Origin: a virus
Lineage: Duplodnaviria; Caudoviricetes
Virus record (IMG/VR): IMGVR_UViG_3300025809_001850
Reading direction: 5' to 3' (one strand)
DNA length: 64,000 bases
The notes under the pieces were generated by a model. The model saw only the letters and a list, made by a program, of their open reading frames with translations, did no database searches and was not told where the DNA came from. Positions 3,071-63,635 of this stretch are shown here, piece by piece (position 1 is the stretch's first letter; each line of letters starts with the position of its first letter). The position numbers were made by a program, and so were the translations under genes.

Positions 3071-3745
3071 ATGATAAACCACGATATTAAATGCATATTC
3101 ATTCATATACCAAGAACTGCTGGTTCAAGTATATCAACTGCGTTATCTCAACGCAAAAAAGATGGTGAACGATTTGAAAAAACAAAACGTGATCCAAACG
3201 AATCCAAGAAGATTCACTTTAGTGTAGAACAGGCACAAAAAATGTTCGGCATGGATGTGTGGGAAGAGTATTTGACGTTCGCATTCGTAAGAAATCCGTG
3301 GGACAGACAAGTATCTCAATATCAATGGAGACTTGCCAAAGGAGAACGAGACGTTGCCAAACGTGACTTTAAAGAGTGGACAAAGTGGAGATGGGAAGGT
3401 TGGTTAAACTGGTTAGAGAATCCACGCAAGGTTATTCGTGGTGTTCCACAACTTGGACACCGTGATCGTGCAGTTGTATTGACAAAAGCATTTGATGAAA
3501 TCTACGATGAAAAAGAAGACAAGATTTTAGTGGACTTTGTGGGTCGTTATGAAAATCTTAGAGAAGATGTTGAAACTTTGTGCGGAAAACTGGGTGTAGA
3601 CAAGGACATCCTGTTACCCCACAAGCACAATGCAAAAAATCGTCCTCATTATACTGAATTCTACGATGATGAAACAATTGAAATTGTTCGTAAATTTTAC
3701 AAGAATGACATTGAAGTTCTTGGGTATAAATATGGGGAAAACTAA
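3071..3745 (+). CDS. carbohydrate sulfotransferase (Sulfotransfer_2/CHST-like)
   Basis: 5'-PSB HIPRTAGSS, 3'-PB FAFVRNPWDRQVS, C-terminal DFVGRYENL. Confidence 0.85.
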   Translation: MINHDIKCIFIHIPRTAGSSISTALSQRKKDGERFEKTKRDPNESKKIHFSVEQAQKMFGMDVWEEYLTFAFVRNPWDRQVSQYQWRLAKGERDVAKRDFKEWTKWRWEGWLNWLENPRKVIRGVPQLGHRDRAVVLTKAFDEIYDEKEDKILVDFVGRYENLREDVETLCGKLGVDKDILLPHKHNAKNRPHYTEFYDDETIEIVRKFYKNDIEVLGYKYGEN

Positions 3746-11911: not shown

Positions 11912-12592
11912 TTGGAAAAGAAAATTATATTTGTAGGTTTTAATAAAACTGCAACGACAAGTATTCATTCTACACTTAAACAAAATGGTATAGATAGCAA
12001 GCACCGTGCGGGTGTTTGGCGTTTCAAGAACCGATACAATAAACTGAAACAAGTTGTGACAAGAAGAGATGCCGTGAGTGACTGGGGTGACACTCATGTT
12101 TCAATTGAAGTTCTTTTGAGATTAAATTCTGACTTTGACAATTTATTGTTTGTGTTGAATACACGGAATTTAGAAAACTGGATCAAGTCAAGATTTAAGC
12201 ATTATTATTTTAATAAGTCGTGGGATTTTGATAATAGAGAAGTCGGTCTTGATGATATATGTTTAGAAAATGCTCAAAAATTTATACGTCACCGCAATGA
12301 GTTTTATCTTAAATGTTGTGAGTCGTTTGATAAAAATAATTTCATTCTACTTGATATTGATAAAGATAATTTTTATGACCACATATCTTCCAAAATCAAT
12401 TTAAAATTAAATAAGATAGATTCTAGGAAAAATGTAAGACCCATATCAAAACTTGATCAAAATTTTAGTGAAAAATACAATAAAGTTAAAAATGAACTGT
12501 TGGAACACTACAATGAAGTAACATTAAATAATGTGCTTACTACAAACGACTGCACCAATCAAAAACTAATGCAGTTTGAAAATAATATATAA
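11912..12592 (+). CDS. sulfotransferase family protein (Sulfotransfer_4/P-loop-like)
   Basis: FVGFNKTATTSI (5'-PSB), FVLNTRNLENWIKS (3'-PB); TTG start at 11912 preceded by GGAG. Confidence 0.65.
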   Translation: MEKKIIFVGFNKTATTSIHSTLKQNGIDSKHRAGVWRFKNRYNKLKQVVTRRDAVSDWGDTHVSIEVLLRLNSDFDNLLFVLNTRNLENWIKSRFKHYYFNKSWDFDNREVGLDDICLENAQKFIRHRNEFYLKCCESFDKNNFILLDIDKDNFYDHISSKINLKLNKIDSRKNVRPISKLDQNFSEKYNKVKNELLEHYNEVTLNNVLTTNDCTNQKLMQFENNI

Positions 12593-20699: not shown

Positions 20700-21428
20700 A
20701 TGAGTGATAAAAATCCATTTGACTATTTTGACAAGATATTTTGCATAAATCTTGATTCTCGTCCTGATAGATGGGAACAAGTGCAGAAAGAGTTTGACAA
20801 AGTTGGAATTCTTAACAGAGTTGAGAGGTTTTCTGCACTCACTGGTAAAACAGAGGGGGGACCACAAGGCAAGAACGTAAGAGGTTGGTTAAAGTGGAAA
20901 AACGTGGACGGAAACAATTTGAGCAATATGTCGTGCATCAAGTATGCCAAGGAAAACAATTTGAACAATGTATTGATATTTGAAGATGACATTTATTTTC
21001 GTTGGTGGAACAAAGAACGATTTCAAAAAATCATAGACACACTTTCAGAGCAACAATGGAGATTGTTCTTTTTCGGTGGAACAATCGATAAACGTGACCA
21101 CAATCCTCCGTTTAATAAAATTTCTGATGAATTATACAACATCCACCTTCCTCTGTTTGGAACAAGTTCCTACGCAGTTCATTCATCAACATACGATGCG
21201 ATTCTTAACAACAGATACTTTAAAGTAGACTGGAGTATTCCTGATGTCGTTAAACATCATCGCAGAATTTGGAATCTTGATGTATTGCTTGGGCGAAAGT
21301 TTGATGGTAAATATACGATGCGAGAACCAATGTGCTTGCAGATTGCAGATTATAGTGAAGTAAGTGACGGAGAAACCGACCACCATGCAACCGCAGTTGA
21401 TAGATATAAGGAGTTATTTGGTGAATGA
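20700..21428 (+). CDS. glycosyltransferase family 25
   Basis: FCINLDSRPDRW, VERFSA, VLIFEDD, TSSYAVH. Confidence 0.85.
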   Translation: MSDKNPFDYFDKIFCINLDSRPDRWEQVQKEFDKVGILNRVERFSALTGKTEGGPQGKNVRGWLKWKNVDGNNLSNMSCIKYAKENNLNNVLIFEDDIYFRWWNKERFQKIIDTLSEQQWRLFFFGGTIDKRDHNPPFNKISDELYNIHLPLFGTSSYAVHSSTYDAILNNRYFKVDWSIPDVVKHHRRIWNLDVLLGRKFDGKYTMREPMCLQIADYSEVSDGETDHHATAVDRYKELFGE

Positions 21429-21973
21429 ATAAAAAAATCGCAATAATACAAACAAGTCCGCAACGTTCCGCAAGCACTTTGCTGATGAATGCTATTCTTG
21501 GGTTTATACTACCAAATCAATTTGCATATTATGTGGATGCACCCGGTAAAAAGACGCAACTTTCACGGGCAAAGTCTGCAATGGAAAATCCATTTATAAT
21601 AAAAAGTCACGCATGGAGTGTACAAAATAAATGGCAAAGGTATTTAAAAGATTATGAATGTTATTTTATAGCATCTGAACGCAGAGAGTTGGGTTTAAAT
21701 GTTGATATAACAAATGATAGAACATTAGTTATTCCATTTGAGATGTTACTTGAAACTCCATCTTATTCATTAGATGAAATCGTTGATCAGTTGTACAAGA
21801 AATTTTTAAACTTTTTACCGAAACAACTCACTCTTGATAAGAAAGATTGCGTAAAAAGACTCAGAGGTATGAACGATATGACTCGTAAAATGAGTAACAA
21901 AAGTTTTTCAGACTATGATCTTTTTTACGGCATACATGGTGGTCACCGAAATCGTGGAGGTAAAAATTTTTAA
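21425..21973 (+). CDS. sulfotransferase-like protein
   Basis: QTSPQRSASTLL (PSB-like), IKSH, IASER; short and divergent. Confidence 0.5.
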   Translation: MNKKIAIIQTSPQRSASTLLMNAILGFILPNQFAYYVDAPGKKTQLSRAKSAMENPFIIKSHAWSVQNKWQRYLKDYECYFIASERRELGLNVDITNDRTLVIPFEMLLETPSYSLDEIVDQLYKKFLNFLPKQLTLDKKDCVKRLRGMNDMTRKMSNKSFSDYDLFYGIHGGHRNRGGKNF

Positions 21974-32725: not shown

Positions 32726-33397
32726 ATGCGACTTTCATGGACACATAAATTTTTGTATATTTCTATACACAAAACTGCAAGTTCAACGGTAAGAGAACTT
32801 TTAGATCCTTATTCGGATATGACATCATGTGGTGACAAACAAACAATTTGTTATCATCATATTCCTGCAAAGAAAATGAAATATTATTTTGATGAAAGAT
32901 ATATTAAAGCAGATAAACAGAATTGGGACTGGAATAACTTTTTTAAATTTACCACTGTACGAAATCCTTGGGATAGAAAATTATCTACATTTTCATACTT
33001 AAAACGAAAAGCACAGGAATTCAAAAAATTTGATTTGGGGTTTGATCCAACATGGTTTGTTGAAAAAACCTTGCGAATAGATGAAGAATGTGATAACTTT
33101 AAAGATTATCTCAAAAAATATTGTAAACCAAATAAAAAAAGAAATCGACAGGTTGATTGGGTACTTGACAAAAATGGAAATAATATGTTAGACTATGTAG
33201 TTAAAGTGGAAAATTTAAAACATGATTTAAAGTATGCTTTCAAGCAAATCGGTTTACCTGAACCTAATCTCGTTCATGCAAACAAAAGTGAACATCGTCC
33301 TTATACGGAAACATACGATGAACAATGGATGATTGATAAAGTTGCACAAAGATACAAAGATGACATTAAACACTTTGATTATGAATTCGGAAACTAA
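32726..33397 (+). CDS. carbohydrate sulfotransferase (Sulfotransfer_2-like)
   Basis: SIHKTASST, FTTVRNPWDRKLS, DYVVKVENL. Confidence 0.85.
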   Translation: MRLSWTHKFLYISIHKTASSTVRELLDPYSDMTSCGDKQTICYHHIPAKKMKYYFDERYIKADKQNWDWNNFFKFTTVRNPWDRKLSTFSYLKRKAQEFKKFDLGFDPTWFVEKTLRIDEECDNFKDYLKKYCKPNKKRNRQVDWVLDKNGNNMLDYVVKVENLKHDLKYAFKQIGLPEPNLVHANKSEHRPYTETYDEQWMIDKVAQRYKDDIKHFDYEFGN

Positions 33398-35063: not shown

Positions 35064-35723
35064 ATGTTACTTTCGCACGACAAAAAGTTTTTATTCGTTG
35101 CAGTTCATAAAACTGGAAGCACTTCTATTAGAAGGTTGCTCAACAAATACACAGATGTAAAAGCATCATCGGATAGTAAATCACCTTACTTTTTTCATGC
35201 GTCTGCGTTATCGTTAAAGCATGAATTCGCAATGAATAAATGGAACTGGTCTTCTTATTTCAAATTTGGATTTGTTAGAAATCCGTGGGAACGATTAGTA
35301 TCAGCATATTTTTATCGTCAGAAAATGGTAAAAAAATGGAAAGAAAACCCACCTACCACCAATTTTTATCATAATGTCAATGAAGCATTTTCTTATGAAC
35401 TTGGAACAACAAAAAACTTCAAAGATTGGATAAAGAAGTTTTTGGTAAACGGAAAACATGAAATTGTAATGCATCAACACAAATATCTTGTTGATGAAAA
35501 TAAAAAATTGTTGATAAACTTTGTTGGAAAACTAGAAAACATAAATCAAGATTTTAATAAAATAATCAACAAACTTGGTGTAGACGTAAAACCTCTTGAA
35601 AACAAAAACAAATCAAATCACAGAAAGTATTCAACTTACTACGATGAATATACTCAAATGTTGGTGCATGATTATTACTCGGTTGATATAAATTTGTTTG
35701 AATATGAATTCAATGAAAAGTAA
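35064..35723 (+). CDS. carbohydrate sulfotransferase (Sulfotransfer_2-like)
   Basis: AVHKTGSTS, FGFVRNPWERLVS, NFVGKLENI. Confidence 0.85.
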   Translation: MLLSHDKKFLFVAVHKTGSTSIRRLLNKYTDVKASSDSKSPYFFHASALSLKHEFAMNKWNWSSYFKFGFVRNPWERLVSAYFYRQKMVKKWKENPPTTNFYHNVNEAFSYELGTTKNFKDWIKKFLVNGKHEIVMHQHKYLVDENKKLLINFVGKLENINQDFNKIINKLGVDVKPLENKNKSNHRKYSTYYDEYTQMLVHDYYSVDINLFEYEFNEK

Positions 35724-51705: not shown

Positions 51706-52305
51706 ATGGAAAATGATGTAAAAAAAGAACTGGATGATTTAAACAAAAATCTCAGAATCATAGAATCTGAATTGACATGGCAACTTGACAAGCTCAAAGA
51801 TTATATGAAACGAGACAACGAAAATGATATGGAGTCTCATTTGAAGATTGCAGATATTAATGCCAGTATTGAATTGCTTCAAGAACAAATTAAATCTCAG
51901 GCAGAAATTTTCACAAGCAATTCAAATAAACAATCATCGTCAACAAGCAACTTGAAGAAAAGTATTGAAGATATATCAAAAACAACAAATTTACTTCAAC
52001 AACACTTTGAGTTTCAAAAAAATAAATTGTCAGAATACATTGAACGAGATAGTGAATTTACAAAGCAGTTTGGTGATACATTACGAAAAATGCGTGACGA
52101 TATGAAAACAATCACATATTCAAAATCAATTGTAGATACACTCAATGTTGCTAGTCAGAAAGATGATGTGGATAGTCTCAAAAAGAAAGATGTATACAGA
52201 AAAGAAAAATTGTTGCATCTTGAAAAGAAACTTGAGAACACCCACATTAATATGAAGAAACGAGTTTCTGAACTTGAAAACAAGATAAAGAAACTAGAAT
52301 CTTAA
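51706..52305 (+). CDS. coiled-coil hypothetical protein
   Basis: Heptad-rich 199-aa ORF with GGAG SD. Confidence 0.65.
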   Translation: MENDVKKELDDLNKNLRIIESELTWQLDKLKDYMKRDNENDMESHLKIADINASIELLQEQIKSQAEIFTSNSNKQSSSTSNLKKSIEDISKTTNLLQQHFEFQKNKLSEYIERDSEFTKQFGDTLRKMRDDMKTITYSKSIVDTLNVASQKDDVDSLKKKDVYRKEKLLHLEKKLENTHINMKKRVSELENKIKKLES

Positions 52306-52391
52306 TTGACATATTCATTATTTGCAATGTATTCCATAAATTCATATCAATAATAATTATAAAAATAACATCATTTGCTATTTATTATAAT

Positions 52392-52973
52392 ATGGGAACT
52401 GATGGAAAAACAATTTTTCCGACTGAATATTTGTCGGCTGATTACTTTGAAAAAGTCGGAGGTCGCAAAGCATATGCATTTTGGTTGGTTGGTAATAGTG
52501 GAAGTGGTAAAAGTACACTCACTAAGACCGTAGAAACAATGCTGATGGAACATGAATATTGGGTAAAGTGCTTAGACGGAGACAATATGCGAAGCACCAT
52601 CAATTCAGACTTGGATTTGTCAGTTGAATCTAGAACAGAAAATGTTCGTAGAAGTGCTGAAATTTCAAAAATGTTTTTGATGAATGGAACAACTACAATT
52701 AATTGTTTTATTTCTCCAACTGAAGAAAGTCGTAATCAAGCACAAAAAATTATTGGTGAACGTTTTTGTTTGATTTATATCAAAGCATCACATGAAGAAG
52801 TTAAAAAACGAGATGTTAAAGGATTATACAAAGATAATGCTGAAAACATGAACAATTCTTTGAATTTATTTGAAGAACCTAGTGACCCTGATTTGATTAT
52901 AGACACCACAGGTAAAACGATAAAATATTCTGCGAATATTTTATTTAATTTTATAATAAACCAACCCATTTGA
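52392..52973 (+). CDS. cysC: adenylylsulfate (APS) kinase
   Basis: WLVGNSGSGKST, LDGDNMR, RTENVRR, FISP, RDVKGLY, FEEP. Confidence 0.88.
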   Translation: MGTDGKTIFPTEYLSADYFEKVGGRKAYAFWLVGNSGSGKSTLTKTVETMLMEHEYWVKCLDGDNMRSTINSDLDLSVESRTENVRRSAEISKMFLMNGTTTINCFISPTEESRNQAQKIIGERFCLIYIKASHEEVKKRDVKGLYKDNAENMNNSLNLFEEPSDPDLIIDTTGKTIKYSANILFNFIINQPI

Positions 52974-52988
52974 TATTTATAAAAAGAG

Positions 52989-53894
52989 ATGAAAAAATGT
53001 AATTTAACACACTTAGAGGAACTTGAAGCAGAAAGCATTCATGTGTTGCGAGAAACCGCTGCACAATTTTCAAGTTCAACATTGCTTTTTAGTGGTGGTA
53101 AAGATAGTTTGGTCTGTCTGCACCTTATCGCAAAAGCATTTTATCCTGCTAATGCTCCGTTTGTTGCACTTCATGTCGACACAGGACACAACTTTCCAGA
53201 GGTAATGGAATTTCGTGACAAAGTTCTTGAACAATACAAAATGAAATTATTTGAACGCAAAGTTGAAGATGCGATTGCAGAAGGTCTTATTAAAGATGAA
53301 ATCGGCATCGGTGCAACTCGTAACGAACTTCAAATACCTGTGCTTCTTGATGCAATTGAGCATCACAAGTTTGATGCTTGTTTAGGAGGAGCAAGACGAG
53401 ACGAAGAAAAAGCAAGAGCAAAAGAACGTTTCTTTTCACATCGTGATGACTTTGGTCAATGGGACCCAAAAAATCAACGACCAGAAATTTGGGATGCATT
53501 TAACGGAAAGAAAAATCAAGGTGAACACTTTCGTGTATTTCCAATCAGTAATTGGACTGAACTTGACGTATGGACTTATATAAAACAAGAAAACATTCCG
53601 TTGCCATCATTATATTTTTCACACAAAAGAAAATGCTATGAACGTGACGGAGTTTGGTATGGTCACGCTGATTACATTAAATTAAAAGACGATGAAAAAC
53701 TAGAAGAAAAAGTAGTTCGCTTTCGTTCAATTGGTGATGTAACAACAACTGGTGCTTGTTTAAGTACTGCAAACAATCTTGATGATATTATCGCAGAAGT
53801 TGCAAGTGCAACCACAACTGAACGTGGAACAAGAGGAGACGATAAAAAATCCGATACAAGTATGGAAGATCGTAAGCAACAAGGATATTTCTAA
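52989..53894 (+). CDS. cysD: sulfate adenylyltransferase subunit 2
   Basis: LEAESIHVLRE, LFSGGKDS, HVDTGHNFPE, GGARRDEEKARAKER.FS, WDPKNQRPE, RVFPISNWTELD, MEDRKQQGYF. Confidence 0.95.
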   Translation: MKKCNLTHLEELEAESIHVLRETAAQFSSSTLLFSGGKDSLVCLHLIAKAFYPANAPFVALHVDTGHNFPEVMEFRDKVLEQYKMKLFERKVEDAIAEGLIKDEIGIGATRNELQIPVLLDAIEHHKFDACLGGARRDEEKARAKERFFSHRDDFGQWDPKNQRPEIWDAFNGKKNQGEHFRVFPISNWTELDVWTYIKQENIPLPSLYFSHKRKCYERDGVWYGHADYIKLKDDEKLEEKVVRFRSIGDVTTTGACLSTANNLDDIIAEVASATTTERGTRGDDKKSDTSMEDRKQQGYF

Positions 53895-53895
53895 G

Positions 53896-55233
53896 ATGGC
53901 AAAGAACAACAACAACGATAAAGAAAACAAGAAACCTGTGGAAAATCAAAAAAAAGAACCAAAACAGAATGTTGATAAGTTGCAAAACAACGAACTTCTT
54001 CGTCTTTCAACTGCGGGTAGTGTAGATGATGGCAAAAGTACCTTAATTGGTCGTTTACTTTACGATACAAAAAGTGTGATGAAAGATCAATACGAAGCAG
54101 TTCGTGCCACTTCCAAAAAGAAAGGTGAAGAAGAAGTAAATCTTGCTTATTTGACAGACGGACTTAAAAGTGAACGTGAACAAGGAATCACGATTGACGT
54201 AGCATATCGTTATTTTAATACTGCGAATCGTAAGTTTATTATTTCAGATACACCAGGACACGTTCAATACACTCGTAATATGATTACAGGTGCAAGTAAA
54301 AGCAACGTTGCAATTATTTTGGTTGACGCACGAAAAGGAATTTCTGAACAAACAAGAAGGCATTCGTTTATTGCAAGTCTTTTGAAAATACCTCATGTTA
54401 TTTATGCGGTAAATAAAATGGACTTGATTGATTATGATGAGCAAAAGTTCAATAAAATTCGTAATGAACTTAAACAATTTAGTGCAAAATTAAGATGTAA
54501 CGATATTCGTTTTATTCCTATATCAGCATTAAAAGGTGATAATGTTACAACCAAGAGTCAAAAAACATCTTGGTATAAAGGTGGTCATTTGCTTGGTATG
54601 CTTGAAAACATTGAAATTTTCTCTGACAATAATTTGGTAGACGCACGATTTGATATTCAAACTGTGATTCGTCCTCATAGTGATAAATGGCATGACTTTC
54701 GTGGATACGCAGGAAAAATCGTAAGTGGTAGTTTTGAAAAAGGACAAAAAGTTTCTGTGCTTCCAAGTGGATTTGAAACACGAATTAAAGATATGCGAGT
54801 ATATAAGGATTTAATAAATCATGCGTGTACACCTGCGAGCATCGTAATGCAACTTGAAGATGATATAGATGCAGGTCGTGGTGATATGATTGCCCGTGTA
54901 GATAATCTTCCAAAAACTTCTCAAAATTTTGATGCAATGATTTGTTGGATGTCGGATGGTGTTATGCAACCTCGTAAAAAATATTTGCTAAAACACGGAA
55001 GCAACGAAGTAACTGCTATGATTACAAAAAAGGTTTATACATTAGATGTAAATACTTTCAGTAAAGCAGAAGATCAAACATTGCAACTTGGATTAAATGA
55101 TATTGCAAGAATCAGCATAAAAACAAGCAAACCCATTAACTTTGATTCATTTGAAAGCAATCGTGCCAATGGAAGTTTTATTTTAATTGATACGCAAACA
55201 AATGAAACACTTGCCGCTGGAATGATAAAGTGA
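53896..55233 (+). CDS. cysN: sulfate adenylyltransferase subunit 1 (GTPase)
   Basis: LLRLSTAGSVDDGKSTLIGRLL, EREQGITIDVAYRYF, DTPGHVQYTRNM, VNKMD, GSFILID; no fused CysC. Confidence 0.94.
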   Translation: MAKNNNNDKENKKPVENQKKEPKQNVDKLQNNELLRLSTAGSVDDGKSTLIGRLLYDTKSVMKDQYEAVRATSKKKGEEEVNLAYLTDGLKSEREQGITIDVAYRYFNTANRKFIISDTPGHVQYTRNMITGASKSNVAIILVDARKGISEQTRRHSFIASLLKIPHVIYAVNKMDLIDYDEQKFNKIRNELKQFSAKLRCNDIRFIPISALKGDNVTTKSQKTSWYKGGHLLGMLENIEIFSDNNLVDARFDIQTVIRPHSDKWHDFRGYAGKIVSGSFEKGQKVSVLPSGFETRIKDMRVYKDLINHACTPASIVMQLEDDIDAGRGDMIARVDNLPKTSQNFDAMICWMSDGVMQPRKKYLLKHGSNEVTAMITKKVYTLDVNTFSKAEDQTLQLGLNDIARISIKTSKPINFDSFESNRANGSFILIDTQTNETLAAGMIK

Positions 55234-56288
55234 AAACTGTAATTGTAACGGGTGGTCTTGGATACATCGGTAGTCATACCGTTGTGGAACTTTTAAATGC
55301 AAATTATGATGTGGTGGTTGCAGACAATTTGTCAAATTCTTCGGAAAAAGTAATTGACGGAATTCGTCAAATCACGGGCAAAAGTATAACCTTCGTTAAT
55401 CTTGATATTCGTGATTATTTTAAATTAGAGTCATTGTTAGGATTTTATCAGCAAAGCACAATTGGTGTAATTCATTTCGCTGCTTGTAAAAGTGTCGGAG
55501 AAAGTATGAAAGAACCAAGCAAGTATTATGATAATAATGTTACAGGTACAAACAACTTGCTTAAAGCAATGAAACGATACAAAGCAGATAATCTGGTGTT
55601 TAGTAGCAGTTGCACTGTTTATGGTCAAGCAGATGATTTACCAGTCACAGAACAAACTCCACAAAAACCTGCGGAAAGTGTTTATGGTCGTACCAAGCAA
55701 ATTTGTGAGCAAATGATAAAAGATTTTCACACAGAACACAATTACAATTCTGTGCTTCTTCGTTATTTCAATCCAATTGGCGCACATGAAAGTTCTTTGA
55801 TTGGAGAACTTCCAAACGGAACTCCCGACAACCTTTTACCGTACGTCGCCGAGACTGCAAGTGGAAAACGGAAATTGTTTACTGTGTTCGGAGAAGACTA
55901 TGACACCGAAGATGGAACTTGCGTTCGTGATTACCTTCATGTGGTTGATTTGGCAAAAGCACACGTTTTGGCATTGGAAGTTTCGGTGGAAAAAAATCTG
56001 AAAGCAGAACCTGTTAATTTAGGAACAGGTACTGGATATTCCGTGAAACAAGTTCTTGAAGCATTTGAAAAAGAAAACGACATTAAGATAAACACTCACT
56101 ACGGAAATCGTAGAAAAGGAGATGTTGAAGCAATTTATGCAGACCCAAGTTACGCAGAAAAGTTGCTTGGATGGAAATCAAAACTTGGATTAAAAGAAAT
56201 GGTAACTTCAGTTTGGAACTGGCAAAAAACAATATCAAGCAAATGTTGTGGTGGTGGTTGTGGTTGTCATGTAAACAAAGAAATTTAG
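55230..56288 (+). CDS. galE: UDP-glucose 4-epimerase
   Basis: VTGGLGYIGSH, IHFAACKSVGES, FSSSCTVYG, YGRTK, LRYFNPIGAH, DGTCVRDYLHVVDLA. Confidence 0.94.
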   Translation: MKTVIVTGGLGYIGSHTVVELLNANYDVVVADNLSNSSEKVIDGIRQITGKSITFVNLDIRDYFKLESLLGFYQQSTIGVIHFAACKSVGESMKEPSKYYDNNVTGTNNLLKAMKRYKADNLVFSSSCTVYGQADDLPVTEQTPQKPAESVYGRTKQICEQMIKDFHTEHNYNSVLLRYFNPIGAHESSLIGELPNGTPDNLLPYVAETASGKRKLFTVFGEDYDTEDGTCVRDYLHVVDLAKAHVLALEVSVEKNLKAEPVNLGTGTGYSVKQVLEAFEKENDIKINTHYGNRRKGDVEAIYADPSYAEKLLGWKSKLGLKEMVTSVWNWQKTISSKCCGGGCGCHVNKEI

Positions 56289-56319: not shown

Positions 56320-56359
56320 GGGATGGACAGGAATTAAGTTTCCTGTCCATTCTTCTTTA
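56320..56359 (+). terminator. intrinsic terminator closing the cysCDN-galE unit
   Basis: ATGGACAGGAA-ttaagt-TTCCTGTCCAT followed by tcttcttt. Confidence 0.8.
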
Positions 56360-56585: not shown

Positions 56586-56828
56586 ATGAAACATAAAATC
56601 GAGTTAACAACCGAAGAAATGCTTTGCATTGCTCAGTCAACTGAACGAAATCTACAAAATGCTATTGACAACAATATACCATGTAGGATATTATTTTATA
56701 CAAATATGCGAAATAAAATACAATTAGCACTTTCAGGACCTGTAGCTCAGTGGTTAGAGCAGGACACTCATAATGTCTTGGCCGCAGGTTCAAATCCTGC
56801 CAGGTCCACCATTGTACTTTCCAACTAA
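56586..56828 (+). CDS. hypothetical protein whose 3' end overlaps the tRNA
   Basis: ATG 2 nt after the previous stop; frame stays open through the tRNA. Confidence 0.35.
   Translation: MKHKIELTTEEMLCIAQSTERNLQNAIDNNIPCRILFYTNMRNKIQLALSGPVAQWLEQDTHNVLAAGSNPARSTIVLSN
56736..56811 (+). tRNA. tRNA with CAU anticodon, most likely tRNA-Ile2 (lysidine-modified, reads AUA)
   Basis: GGACCTG/CAGGTCC acceptor, GCTC/GAGC D arm, CTCATAA anticodon loop, GGTTCAAATCC T arm, A73 and encoded CCA, 76 nt; resembles E. coli ileX rather than initiator Met. Confidence 0.92.
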
Positions 56829-56830
56829 TT

Positions 56831-57706
56831 ATGATAGATTTCAAAAATGTAACTAAAATTGTGACTCATCCAGGTCATGCACATAGAGACGACTTTCTGT
56901 CGGTCTGTTTTGTTCTTGCAATGTGTTCACAACATCAAAATATGCCATCAGTTTACAGACGTGATCCAACAGAGCATGAACTGAAAGACCCCAACATTGT
57001 AGTGATTGATATCGGAGAACGACACGAACCTGAGTTGAGTAACTTTGATCATCATCAATTTCCACGTGATCACAAACCATGTTGTGCATTATCTTTAATT
57101 TTACAGAATATGACCATCTACGAAGAAGCAAATCGTGGATTTCGTTGGTTAACTGTAACTGAAAAGTTTGATAGCAAGGGACCATACGAGGTGGCAAAAG
57201 ATATCGGAGTAGATTGGAATACCATTTCAGATGCTACATTTTCTCCTGTAGAGGAGGCTGTGTTACATCTATTTGCAAAAACATTTGATGGTGGTCAAAG
57301 TGGAATATATCTGGGTTTAATGACTACCATCGGAACTGAGTTACTAAACACCCTTGAGATGTTCACAGGTCGTTGGCAACAATTATCAGATTCAATTACG
57401 ACATCGTTGGTATACGGAAACGAAGTAGTATTTTCACTTGGTATTTTGGGTGACAATGATCCTTCATTTGCATTGAGTGCATATGTTGAAGAAAATCATC
57501 CGAATGCAGTTGCCACAATCACCCACGATGATCGAGGAGATGGTTATTGTCTGTTTAGACTCAATGATAGTTCAAAGATTGACTTTTCTAAAATTGAGAA
57601 TGACGAACACATATTATTTGCTCACAAAAATGGATTCGTGGCAAAGACTCATACTACAATTTCAAATGAAAAACTTATTGAACTTCTTGAAAAATCTTCA
57701 AAATAA
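56831..57706 (+). CDS. MYG1-family (DHH-related) exonuclease
   Basis: THPGHAHRDDF, VIDIG, FDHHQ, FAHKNGFVA. Confidence 0.75.
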   Translation: MIDFKNVTKIVTHPGHAHRDDFLSVCFVLAMCSQHQNMPSVYRRDPTEHELKDPNIVVIDIGERHEPELSNFDHHQFPRDHKPCCALSLILQNMTIYEEANRGFRWLTVTEKFDSKGPYEVAKDIGVDWNTISDATFSPVEEAVLHLFAKTFDGGQSGIYLGLMTTIGTELLNTLEMFTGRWQQLSDSITTSLVYGNEVVFSLGILGDNDPSFALSAYVEENHPNAVATITHDDRGDGYCLFRLNDSSKIDFSKIENDEHILFAHKNGFVAKTHTTISNEKLIELLEKSSK

Positions 57707-58737: not shown

Positions 58738-59106
58738 ATGCAGAAAATACCATTAGCTTTGTTGATCAGTTTCGTTGCATTTGTTGGATATCTCGTAATA
58801 TCTAAAGTATCAGGTGGTGACTTTACCAATCAACTTGAAGTTTATGTTGGTGGTGACAAAATATTACATCTGGTGCTTGCATTCGTATTGTCGTTACTTT
58901 CAATGATGTCATTTTCACACAAATTTTCCAGCTGGAACATCTTGACAGTATTAATGATTATACTGACAATTGAAGAAACTGCTCAATATTTTTTACCAAA
59001 TCGTCATTTTGGATTTGATGATTTAATTGCAGGGTGGAGTGGATTGATATGTGGAGGACTTTTATACAACTTAATAAAAACACTAACAAAAATAAGATAT
59101 GAATGA
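58738..59106 (+). CDS. VanZ-like membrane protein
   Basis: DKILHLVLAFVL, EETAQYFLPNR.FGFDDLIAG. Confidence 0.75.
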   Translation: MQKIPLALLISFVAFVGYLVISKVSGGDFTNQLEVYVGGDKILHLVLAFVLSLLSMMSFSHKFSSWNILTVLMIILTIEETAQYFLPNRHFGFDDLIAGWSGLICGGLLYNLIKTLTKIRYE

Positions 59107-59176
59107 GAACAGCGCACCTTGGGGAACAATATTATTAATTTTAATCGCAATGATGCTTATTATGTGGAAATGTTGA
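59099..59176 (+). CDS. possible 25-aa single-TM peptide
   Basis: MNENSAPWGTILLILIAMMLIMWKC, overlapping the VanZ stop. Confidence 0.3.
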   Translation: MNENSAPWGTILLILIAMMLIMWKC

Positions 59177-59379
59177 TTATGGACGATTATATCAATTTTG
59201 CAAACCTACCACATATTCTTACGATAACACATCGTCAAACTAATCAATTGATTTTAAAAAAGAAATTCAGCAACGAAGGTGATGCATTGCAGTATATGAA
59301 CGAAGCCAGAGAATTTCAAAATAACAAACAAAACTTTAGTTTCGTGATCTCTGGTCCTAATATGTATTATAGCACCTGA
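59170..59379 (+). CDS. hypothetical protein
   Basis: ATG at 59170 or 59179 preferred over the TTG at 59119. Confidence 0.45.
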   Translation: MLIMDDYINFANLPHILTITHRQTNQLILKKKFSNEGDALQYMNEAREFQNNKQNFSFVISGPNMYYST

Positions 59380-60065
59380 TGTACACATCTGGAGTCAGAA
59401 TCATCATTTGGATATGTGCAATATTTTATTTATTGCAACATTTATATTATCCTTTGGTAAGTGAAATGTTCGGACTTGCTTATATTGGTCATCCCAATTT
59501 CAATTCATTGCAACTTTTAACTTACACATTCTTACACGGAGATGCGTTCCACATTTTTATTAATATGTTTATGTTGGCAATTTTCGGACCACGCATAGAA
59601 CAATCAGTTGGAATCCAAAATCTGTTTGTATTGTTTGTATTATCTTCAATTGGTGGTGCGGTTGCTCAAACAATGTTTACTATGTTTTCTGTGTACACTG
59701 CGTTCGGAACTTTGTTTCCGATTGCTCCACTTGATTTTTATGAACAAGTTCAATTTTCACTGATACACGGTCATGAAGCATCAGCAACATTCAACAGAAT
59801 AACCATAGGAGCATCTGCAGGGGTATTCGGGGTGATGCTTGCATTTACGTGTATGTTTCCAACACAGCGACTTGGATTACCTTTATTAAACATCACATTG
59901 TCTGCACGATTAATTATGATTATTTACGTCGTGGGAGAAATTTACATGGCAATATACGATCCCACTCCAAATATTGCTCATTACGCACACATTGGAGGAG
60001 CAATCGTTGGATTACTATTGGCATTATATTGGAGAAACTCACTCAAATCAAAAAATAATGCTTGA
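59379..60065 (+). CDS. rhomboid intramembrane serine protease
   Basis: TYTFLHGDAFHIFINM, IGASAGVFG (Ser), AHIGG (His); multiple TM helices. Confidence 0.9.
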   Translation: MYTSGVRIIIWICAIFYLLQHLYYPLVSEMFGLAYIGHPNFNSLQLLTYTFLHGDAFHIFINMFMLAIFGPRIEQSVGIQNLFVLFVLSSIGGAVAQTMFTMFSVYTAFGTLFPIAPLDFYEQVQFSLIHGHEASATFNRITIGASAGVFGVMLAFTCMFPTQRLGLPLLNITLSARLIMIIYVVGEIYMAIYDPTPNIAHYAHIGGAIVGLLLALYWRNSLKSKNNA

Positions 60066-62645: not shown

Positions 62646-63635
62646 ATGAAACTAGGACTTGTCTGTATCTCTGAACAACTAAAAAGCATCAATAAAGAAA
62701 TTGCGTTTCGCACAATGACACGCAAACGATTTAATGATTTAACTGCATTATATGATCGTGATTATGCTATCAAAGAATTGTCGGAAAGAATTCTGATTAA
62801 CATAGAAGTTACAGGTTTAGTTATTGATCATTGCGAAAAACAAAACTTTGCTCATTATCGTCTTACTTGTGCAGGATTTCCACTTATCACAGATCCCACA
62901 CTTGATTTGTCGTTTACAAAACTGCACAATCACCAAGAAATCAAAAAGCAACTAAATTTACTTGGAAAACAAATCAATGAATCATCAGTAAGCATCGGAA
63001 GTCATCCTGATCAATTCAATGTTCTTGCTTCTCTTAATCAAGACTCGGTAAATAAAACTATCAAGGAACTTAACTTTCAAACGAGTATCATTGATATGAT
63101 GCTTCAACCAAGAAATCACAAATGTCCTGTGAACATTCACATCAACGCAAGTCCTGCAAACAAATCTGTCGATGTATCAGATCAAATAGAAGAAATGGTG
63201 AATCGTTTTTATGCAGGTTTCTCGCAATGCAATGAATCAGTTAAAACTCGTCTGACTTTAGAAAACGAAGACAAAGGATTTTTCAGTACAGAGCATATTC
63301 TTATGTTTCATGCTAGATTAAAGGAAAAGTATGATGTTGATGTTCCTATATGCTACGACAACCTCCATGATGTCTGCAACAACACTTGTGGTAACGATGT
63401 AGAAACTAATATGAACCTATGCATGGAAACATGGCCAAACGATGTAGAACCCGTGTTTCATTGGTCAGAAGGCAAAGAAGATAAAATGCGTAGTCATCGT
63501 GATTATTATACCGACAACTTCTTTCCACCAACTGCAACTCGTAGCATAAAGTGGGAGTGTGAAGTAAAAGCAAAAGATAATGCAATTTGCCAGTTGCTTG
63601 AACAACACGAAGCACACAATCTACTTGTTGCGTGA
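62646..63635 (+). CDS. uvsE: UV-damage endonuclease
   Basis: LGLVCIS, FRTMT, HYRL, SHPDQF, NIH, RLTLENED, YDNLH, FHWSE, ECEVKAKD. Confidence 0.88.
   Translation: MKLGLVCISEQLKSINKEIAFRTMTRKRFNDLTALYDRDYAIKELSERILINIEVTGLVIDHCEKQNFAHYRLTCAGFPLITDPTLDLSFTKLHNHQEIKKQLNLLGKQINESSVSIGSHPDQFNVLASLNQDSVNKTIKELNFQTSIIDMMLQPRNHKCPVNIHINASPANKSVDVSDQIEEMVNRFYAGFSQCNESVKTRLTLENEDKGFFSTEHILMFHARLKEKYDVDVPICYDNLHDVCNNTCGNDVETNMNLCMETWPNDVEPVFHWSEGKEDKMRSHRDYYTDNFFPPTATRSIKWECEVKAKDNAICQLLEQHEAHNLLVA

Follow-up and report, generated by a model that had tools for sequence, protein, structure and literature searches.

A 64,000-nucleotide stretch of DNA from an uncultured marine virus (Duplodnaviria; Caudoviricetes; IMG/VR record IMGVR_UViG_3300025809_001850), referred to here at its full length as the window, carries four consecutive genes, cysC, cysD, cysN, and galE (positions 52392 to 56288), which probably constitute a phage-encoded supply of glycan building blocks. 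The three cys gene products would provide 3′-phosphoadenosine 5′-phosphosulfate (PAPS) as the donor for the phage's own sulfotransferases, and not for cysteine synthesis. This reading is favored because of the gene context, the conserved synteny, the purifying selection on the genes, and the co-occurrence of sulfotransferases in other viral records. The original prediction, made from the window sequence by itself, had likewise proposed a sulfotransferase donor supply with a link to glycans, and not an assimilatory gene set, but it argued from the lack of a reductase gene in the window. The conclusion is supported by context, synteny, substitution rates, and co-occurrence; the argument is insufficient, as a host CysH could consume PAPS made by the phage, and the donor-supply reading rests mainly on the positive context and not on the absent reductase.

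The cysC-cysD-cysN-galE unit

As is known for these enzyme families, CysD and CysN together form a GTP-driven ATP sulfurylase, which converts sulfate and ATP to adenosine 5′-phosphosulfate (APS), and CysC converts APS to PAPS. The first gene of the unit, cysC (52392–52973, plus strand), encodes a 193 amino acid adenylyl-sulfate (APS) kinase that scores 125.2 bits against PF01583 (cut-off 21.1; E = 2.9e-36); alignment to the APS kinases 2yvu and PAPSS1 reveals the P-loop GNSGSGKST together with the motifs LDGD, FISP, and RDVKGLYK. The 301 amino acid product of cysD (52989–53894, plus strand) is the small, catalytic subunit of ATP sulfurylase; it has the PAPS_reduct/PP-loop fold, matches PDB entry 1ZUN_A with 281 bits, exceeds the cut-offs of both TIGR02039 (397.9 bits versus 396.6) and NF003587 (424.5 versus 195), and its PP-loop SGGKDS is invariant across the clade alignment. 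The GTPase subunit is encoded by cysN (53896–55233, plus strand; 445 amino acids), which scores 536.6 bits against TIGR02034 (cut-off 336.1) and 425 bits against 1ZUN_B, and alignment to the latter shows that the GTPase motifs G1 to G4 are present, including GSVDDGKST, DTPGH, and NKMD. No APS kinase domain is fused to CysN, as only positions 8–431 of the 632-position bifunctional CysN/CysC model were matched. The longest open reading frame (ORF) for cysN would begin at a TTG at 53779, inside cysD, but this start was rejected in favor of the ATG at 53896, one base past the cysD stop; the reading from the ATG agrees with the relatives described below and with 1ZUN_B from its residue 20. The resulting protein has an N-terminal extension of ~30 Asn/Lys-rich residues (53896–53990), whose length differs from one relative to another and which cellular CysN lacks.

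The fourth gene, galE (55230–56288, plus strand), encodes a UDP-glucose 4-epimerase (TIGR01179, 398.6 bits; cut-off 262.3). All four genes are intact and co-directional, with 15 nt between cysC and cysD, 1 nt between cysD and cysN, and a 4-nt overlap of cysN with galE. Downstream of galE, a consensus scan located a hairpin with a 14-pair, GC-containing stem followed by a T-tract (56320–56353, plus strand), which resembles an intrinsic terminator; its fold energy is −29.1 kcal/mol (z = −4.52), and none of 200 shuffled sequences was as stable. This terminator-like element would end the cysC-cysD-cysN-galE unit. Family scores, motifs, spacing, and hairpin stability all uphold the description, given in the original prediction, of intact and consecutive cysC, cysD, and cysN genes followed by galE and a terminator.

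Co-transcription of cysN with galE, also part of that description, is suggested by the terminator and by the 4 nt that the two genes share. Parts of cysC, cysD, cysN, and galE are matched, at 90–99% identity, by contigs in four marine metatranscriptome runs, which come from three studies, and contigs from these RNA libraries span both the cysD/cysN junction (X16 record 14) and the cysN/galE junction (X15 record 7 and X16 record 16). These are Logan contigs, which show neither a single transcript, nor its strand, nor its level; DNA carry-over is possible, and the parts left uncovered carry no meaning. They lend weak backing to expression of the unit, and the bridging contigs agree with co-transcription but do not establish a single transcript.

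Directly upstream, a TATTTAT motif (52379–52385, plus strand) lies 6 nt ahead of the cysC start and is a candidate promoter or regulatory element. When the window is compared with its four relatives, TA(T/C)TTAT is the sole conserved block 5′ of cysC, and 9 of 50 genes with an ATG start have it in the 30 nt before them, compared with 1.2% of random positions, a ~15-fold difference; it could act as a promoter or in translation. A second copy is found at 52974–52980. Shine-Dalgarno usage, considered as a guide to the host, was uninformative, the core being present at 28% of starts against a background of 9%.

Gene context in the window and its marine relatives

Close relatives of the three Cys proteins are found in marine metagenomes: ~20 clusters at 83–98% identity for CysD, ~28 at 74–94% for CysN, and more than 120 at 78% identity or higher for CysC. 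Below this phage clade, identity falls sharply to 58–68%, and all such proteins belong to Bacteroidota and their allies. Some of the related contigs are 190–569 kb in length, and their sources include Tara Oceans. About 100% of the sampled words of the window were found in nine marine metagenome runs, which are coded as nine studies but may include the window's own sample or share sampling campaigns, and 57–77% were found in five more runs from two further studies.

In all four relatives that were compared with the window (L001, L003, L108, and L109), an S8 protease gene is followed by cysC-cysD-cysN, and galE comes after the cys genes. Three of the four have two additional genes between cysN and galE (L001:12236–14321, L003:12218–14300, and L108:12576–14230), which are read as gmd and fcl: in L001 and L003, where the families were checked, by far their best matches are to GDP-mannose 4,6-dehydratase (310–313 bits) and GDP-L-fucose synthase (446–450 bits; both NCBIfam). 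The predicted products of L001, L003, and L108 are thus those of one operon making PAPS, GDP-fucose, and UDP-galactose. The window lacks gmd-fcl at its cysN-galE junction. In L003, the operon runs unbroken into glycosyltransferase genes. In L109, a more divergent relative, the ~8.5 kb upstream of the unit (L109:1–5281) encode three glycosyltransferases, a Methyltransf_24 protein, a polysaccharide pyruvyl transferase, and, ~8 kb away, two Sulfotransfer_2 proteins; their genes directly precede PDDEXK-S8-cysC-cysD-cysN-galE, with no giant fiber gene in between. A family-less 199 amino acid ORF of the window (51706–52305), lying between the S8 protease gene and cysC, is not at this position in L001, L003, or L109 and is therefore not part of the conserved module.

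The ratio of nonsynonymous to synonymous substitution rates relative to these contigs was 0.11–0.13 for cysC, 0.04–0.12 for cysD, and 0.10–0.11 for cysN, and spanned 0.04–0.16 over all four genes including galE, although synonymous sites in the three cys genes are saturated in the comparison with L109. Judged by these ratios, the unit is under purifying selection in a widespread marine phage clade.

The window itself is AT-rich (GC content 0.29–0.39), with nearly every gene on the plus strand. Its first 41,000 positions constitute a very large glycan island of ~25–30 glycosyltransferase-like genes from many families, on the same strand as the cys unit, together with rmlA, rmlB, and genes for an RmlD-like reductase and a hexapeptide acetyltransferase. 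The original prediction had counted five sulfotransferases. Three are firm members of Sulfotransfer_2 (PF03567), all on the plus strand: 3071–3745 (4.3e-18), a presumed PAPS consumer, 32726–33397 (2.5e-11), and 35064–35723 (1.3e-19), the last of which also matches phrog_3347, annotated as Galactose-3-O-sulfotransferase (4.3e-21). An alignment of the three paralogues shows that all retain both PAPS-binding motifs, which in the 3071–3745 protein read HIPRTAGSS for the 5′-phosphosulfate and VRNPWDR..S for the 3′-phosphate. The remaining two genes reach only the status of probable. The Sulfotransfer_4-like gene at 11912–12592 (plus strand; long ORF from 11819) falls just short of the PF17784 cut-off (22.6 versus 22.8 bits) and has Atlas feature scores of 0.93–0.95 to Sulfotransfer_4 clusters, the Atlas record beginning at residue 32 of the long ORF. 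The gene at 21425–21973 (plus strand) has no Pfam match, and its assignment to the sulfotransferase fold comes from an Atlas structural match to Sulfotransfer_1/3 clusters (template-modeling score 0.57–0.67; feature score 0.94).

Reductase and CysQ genes were sought in the 64-kb window and in ~72 kb from the four related contigs. Pfam scans of nearly all window ORFs of at least 110 amino acids yielded no second PAPS_reduct match and no match to NIR_SIR or cysteine synthase. A CysH profile, built from 12 cellular CysH sequences from the genomes with the closest CysD, matched only CysD in six frames of the window and did not find CysH in any of the four relatives. These searches uphold the claim that no reductase is present in the window. 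Likewise, no CysQ-like sequence was matched in six frames of the window or in the four relatives.

Family enzymology and the sequence motifs suggest the following scheme. Phage CysD/CysN would make APS, which CysC would convert to PAPS; the phage's own sulfotransferases, five of them in the window, would then use it to produce sulfated glycans. These glycans would be built by phage glycosyltransferases from nucleotide sugars supplied by GalE and RmlA/RmlB and, in the relatives, by Gmd and Fcl, and the sulfated product may be placed on virion fibers or on the host envelope. As no phage cysQ was found, the by-product 3′-phosphoadenosine 5′-phosphate (PAP) would presumably be cleared by host CysQ. 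A phage candidate for this role, the MYG1/UPF0160 (DHH-superfamily) gene at 56831–57706, was considered but is speculation, as only a family assignment is available (Pfam N-terminal match, Atlas score 0.98); this gene, which the terminator and a tRNA separate from the unit, is present in L001 and absent from L003.

Other neighbors of the unit are as follows. Upstream of cysC are genes for a 1934 amino acid fiber-type protein with collagen repeats, a laminin-G domain, and an endosialidase-chaperone domain, for a DUF6174 protein, for the S8 protease, and for a phage PDDEXK_15 nuclease; a deoxynucleoside monophosphate (dNMP) kinase gene, a MetK gene, and a QueF-like gene lie further upstream. Downstream, the galE terminator is separated from the MYG1-like gene by a spurious 82 amino acid ORF that contains a tRNA-Met gene (CAT; 56736–56811), and genes for a VanZ-like protein, a rhomboid-protease-like membrane protein, and a UvdE UV-endonuclease follow (58738–60065 and 62646–63635).

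Viral and cellular counterparts

No credible phage cysD was found among 50,697 GenBank phage records. The rejected matches were to short fecal contigs, to one contig of Salmonella, and to two "Acinetobacter phage" contigs of 115 kb whose identity is at the enterobacterial level. PHROGs contains no CysC, CysD, or CysN family. In IMG/VR (2.9 million contigs), a scan with the single CysD protein gave no match, an alignment-based scan gave distant contigs only, and an exact 46-base pattern of the window was not found; overall, five cysD contigs and one weak same-fold match (21% identity) were obtained, none of the phage clade. Three of these five cysD contigs also carry a sulfotransferase of the three families searched. 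One (G051, also L009; 177.8 kb with direct terminal repeats) has cysD-cysN and two Sulfotransfer_2 genes ~20 kb away, with no second PAPS_reduct; a second (G052) combines cysD-cysN with an APS kinase and Sulfotransfer_3; and in a third (G054) Sulfotransfer_3 is directly upstream of cysD-cysN-cysC. No sulfotransferase of the three families was found in G053, and the fifth contig (G055/L008) is of the assimilatory type, with cysH directly upstream of cysD. G051 is an unrelated viral contig in which the combination is independent; its region at ~141860–162878 contains a weak APS-kinase-like gene and no cysH. The original prediction had proposed that such genes should co-occur with sulfotransferases, and the three in five agree in trend, although the sample is small and the IMG/VR contigs are taken as viral by their database label.

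The published huge phage LR756500.1 (462 kb) has an APS kinase gene and a Sulfotransfer_2 gene 21 kb apart (112863–113291 and 134038–134607; L106), and within it neither PAPS_reduct nor an ATP sulfurylase of either type was found; judging by gene content, this phage would depend on APS from its host. The Sat-type ATP sulfurylase (PF01747) was not found in LR756500.1, LR756508.1, G051, G054, or G055.

Branch support in a 103-row CysD tree, obtained with the quick search of IQ-TREE, was assessed by the Shimodaira–Hasegawa-like approximate likelihood-ratio test (SH-aLRT) only. In this tree, CysD of the phage clade is monophyletic (support 100), with a long stem that arises inside a group (SH-aLRT 94) comprising marine Cyclobacteriaceae, Roseivirga, Flammeovirga, and Flavobacteriaceae. 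The operon type there is nearly always cysC-cysD-cysN, often with cysQ behind it, whereas the cysH-cysD-cysN type occurs on other branches; in 48 cellular rows of the tree, cysC is directly upstream of cysD, as in the window. Across Bacteroidota, Verrucomicrobiota, and Chlorobiota, the cysH-cysD-cysN design (L014, L020, L033, L038, L040, L046, L076, and L078) and the cysC-cysD-cysN(-cysQ) design each cluster on the CysD tree. The best cellular CysN matches are to Cytophagales (Fulvivirga and Rapidithrix, 58–62% identity), which accords with the CysD phylogeny. The possibility that the operon is a mosaic containing a CysN of proteobacterial origin was considered and rejected, as CysN is 50–62% identical to Bacteroidota proteins. 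From the tree and gene order, a single capture event seems to have brought the module, already arranged as a cysC-cysD-cysN operon, into the phages from marine Bacteroidota of the Cytophagales/Flavobacteriales type.

The phage unit shares with the Bacteroidota cysC-cysD-cysN(-cysQ) operons its gene order, with a free-standing cysC ahead of cysD-cysN, and the proteins are 58–65% (CysD) and 55–62% (CysN) identical; it differs in being viral, in lacking cysQ and a sulfate permease, in being joined to galE (and to gmd-fcl in relatives), and in its long branch. Some of the cellular genomes lack CysH, and some of the operons are next to polysaccharide genes. Among the 50 cellular genomes with the closest CysD, several Flavobacteriaceae had no CysH above the cut-off (two Aequorivita, Lutibacter flavus, and a Leeuwenhoekiella); Bacteroides thetaiotaomicron, a control genome, has APS kinase, PAPS_reduct, and sulfotransferase matches but no CysH; and a plasmid of Chondrinema litorale (NZ_CP111067.1) carries permease-cysC-cysD-cysN-cysQ directly beside polysaccharide genes. 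On account of these three observations, and as far as gene content can tell, a PAPS-only use of the cysC-cysD-cysN operon exists in cells alongside the assimilatory one.

NodP and NodQ of Sinorhizobium meliloti are a second sulfate-activation system, which feeds the Nod-factor sulfotransferase NodH and does not serve cysteine synthesis. The original prediction had likened the phage product to the sulfuryl donor made by NodPQ. The resemblance is that a CysD/CysN/CysC set supplies PAPS for glycan sulfation, the glycan being a lipo-chitooligosaccharide in Sinorhizobium and the role being a proposed one in the phage, and that sulfotransferase genes accompany the phage module (the window has five sulfotransferase-like genes and L109 has two). 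Kinship is another matter. CysD of the S. meliloti plasmid pRmeGR4c is only 44% identical and, with Escherichia coli CysD, forms a distant outgroup, separated from the rest of the CysD tree by a branch of 1.17 changes per column; moreover, cysC directly follows cysN in the rhizobial locus (L092, cysD-cysN-cysC), whereas the phage CysC is free-standing and upstream, with no NodQ-type fusion. Because phage CysD nests in Bacteroidota and rhizobial CysD in the outgroup, the comparison with NodPQ stands as a functional analogy only.

Closer in setting are the giant viruses. Moumouvirus australiensis (Ma457 and Ma461) and Cotonvirus japonicus encode a bifunctional sulfate adenylyltransferase/APS kinase together with a sulfotransferase in their fibril-glycosylation cluster, which was taken by the authors as a hint of sugar sulfation needing validation (PMC10117803; echoed in PMC11625862). 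As in the phage, a virus-encoded PAPS-making enzyme accompanies a sulfotransferase, there within a virion-fibril glycan cluster; however, giant viruses infect eukaryotes and have one fused protein of 620–650 amino acids, whereas the phage has the bacterial, GTPase-dependent CysD/CysN plus CysC and far more sulfotransferases. Predicted PAPS synthesis beside sulfotransferases is thus already known from giant viruses, as are dedicated PAPS systems in bacteria. In the literature on phages or megaphages with sulfotransferases or PAPS, we found no description of such a bacteriophage system, nor any report of bacteriophage-made sulfated glycans. The literature searched contains no earlier description of a phage-captured, bacterial-type CysC plus CysD/CysN set that shares an operon with galE and gmd-fcl and is conserved across an abundant clade of marine phages.

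Alternative explanations and significance

Several points weigh against a dedicated donor supply. Because incomplete host pathways are common in phages, an absent reductase is by itself weak evidence, and the negative result for cysH, APS reductase, and sulfite reductase covers the window and its four relatives, not the whole genome. The closest firm sulfotransferase in the window is 17 kb from cysC, with fiber genes between them. In cells, cysQ is adjacent in 21 of 81 loci (80 GTDB genome loci and the Chondrinema plasmid), and in none of the phage loci. CysH was above the curated cut-off in 35 of the 50 cellular genomes with the closest CysD, and the ancestral operon may have served assimilation too. 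Finally, CysC scores 130.7 bits against TIGR00455, just below the strict NCBIfam equivalog cut-off of 138.7; with this score and 31–50% identity to Bacteroidota CysC, it is, on sequence criteria, a divergent member of the APS kinases.

One competing explanation keeps PAPS as the product but changes its use: sulfation of a non-glycan acceptor (tyrosine or serine of a virion or host protein, a nucleotide or DNA, or a small molecule), or sulfation and assimilation together. Giant fiber proteins adjoin the module, and the Sulfotransfer_2 genes at 32726 and 35064 flank a nucleotide-flavored group of dNMP kinase, LOG-like, MetK, and QueF-like genes, either of which could be read in its favor. We nevertheless consider it unlikely, as Sulfotransfer_2 is a family of carbohydrate sulfotransferases whose PHROG match here is annotated for galactose, GalE is in the operon itself and is joined by Gmd and Fcl in relatives, and the L109 sulfotransferase genes are situated among glycosyltransferase and pyruvyl transferase genes.

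Also unlikely, in our judgment, is an assimilatory set of auxiliary metabolic genes that boosts sulfate activation for the host PAPS and sulfite reductases, and hence sulfide and cysteine, the position of galE being incidental. This is how such genes have been cataloged: in a survey of viral organosulfur genes (Kieft et al., preprint 2021; 10.1101/2021.01.05.425418), cysD, cysN, cysC, and cysNC are filed under assimilatory sulfate reduction, and nearly all viral cysC genes came from marine and freshwater samples and were under purifying selection. Sulfotransferases are mentioned zero times in the text of that survey (10.1101/2021.01.05.425418). The viral cysC, cysD, cysN, and cysH genes treated there are of the same families on viral contigs, and were read as assimilation, whereas the context described here favors donor supply. 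The 35 of 50 cellular genomes with CysH and the IMG/VR contig G055 with its adjoining cysH are likewise what an assimilatory role would lead one to expect. Against it, the 64 kb of the window plus ~72 kb of relatives yielded neither cysH nor a sulfite reductase or cysteine synthase gene; the companions in the operon are in every case genes of nucleotide-sugar synthesis (galE, gmd, and fcl) and never of sulfur reduction; sulfotransferases are abundant in the same genome; and the phage clade groups with operons of the cysC-cysD type, not with the cysH-cysD type of other branches.

That the stretch is a bacterial polysaccharide locus or a chimeric assembly, and not phage DNA, is very improbable: suspicion might arise because cysD in GenBank "phage" records is confined to contigs that are evidently of bacterial origin or very short, but the window has the 1934 amino acid fiber gene with collagen repeats and an endosialidase-chaperone domain, the phage PDDEXK_15 nuclease, dNMP kinase, and tRNA genes, and its genes on one strand, the arrangement recurs on independent 190-kb and 351-kb contigs from different samples, and ~100% of the sampled words are present in the nine marine metagenome runs.

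The donor-supply reading thus remains the probable one for this unit, and its reach beyond the window may be considered. The module is rare in reference collections, yet common in marine metagenomes, where CysC alone has more than 120 clusters of at least 78% identity. We regard it as a real but tentative possibility that abundant, very large marine phages make activated sulfate during infection for sulfated fucose or galactose glycans on their fibers or on the host surface, and that the cysC, cysD, and cysN genes of viral catalogs are then mostly a donor supply for sulfotransferases. Inventories of the marine sulfur cycle that book viral cysC, cysD, and cysN as assimilation genes come into question accordingly: as suppliers of a sulfuryl donor, these genes would carry no information on whether viruses stimulate sulfate reduction. 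They would point instead to viruses as drivers of the formation of sulfated polysaccharide, which belongs to the recalcitrant organic matter of the sea.

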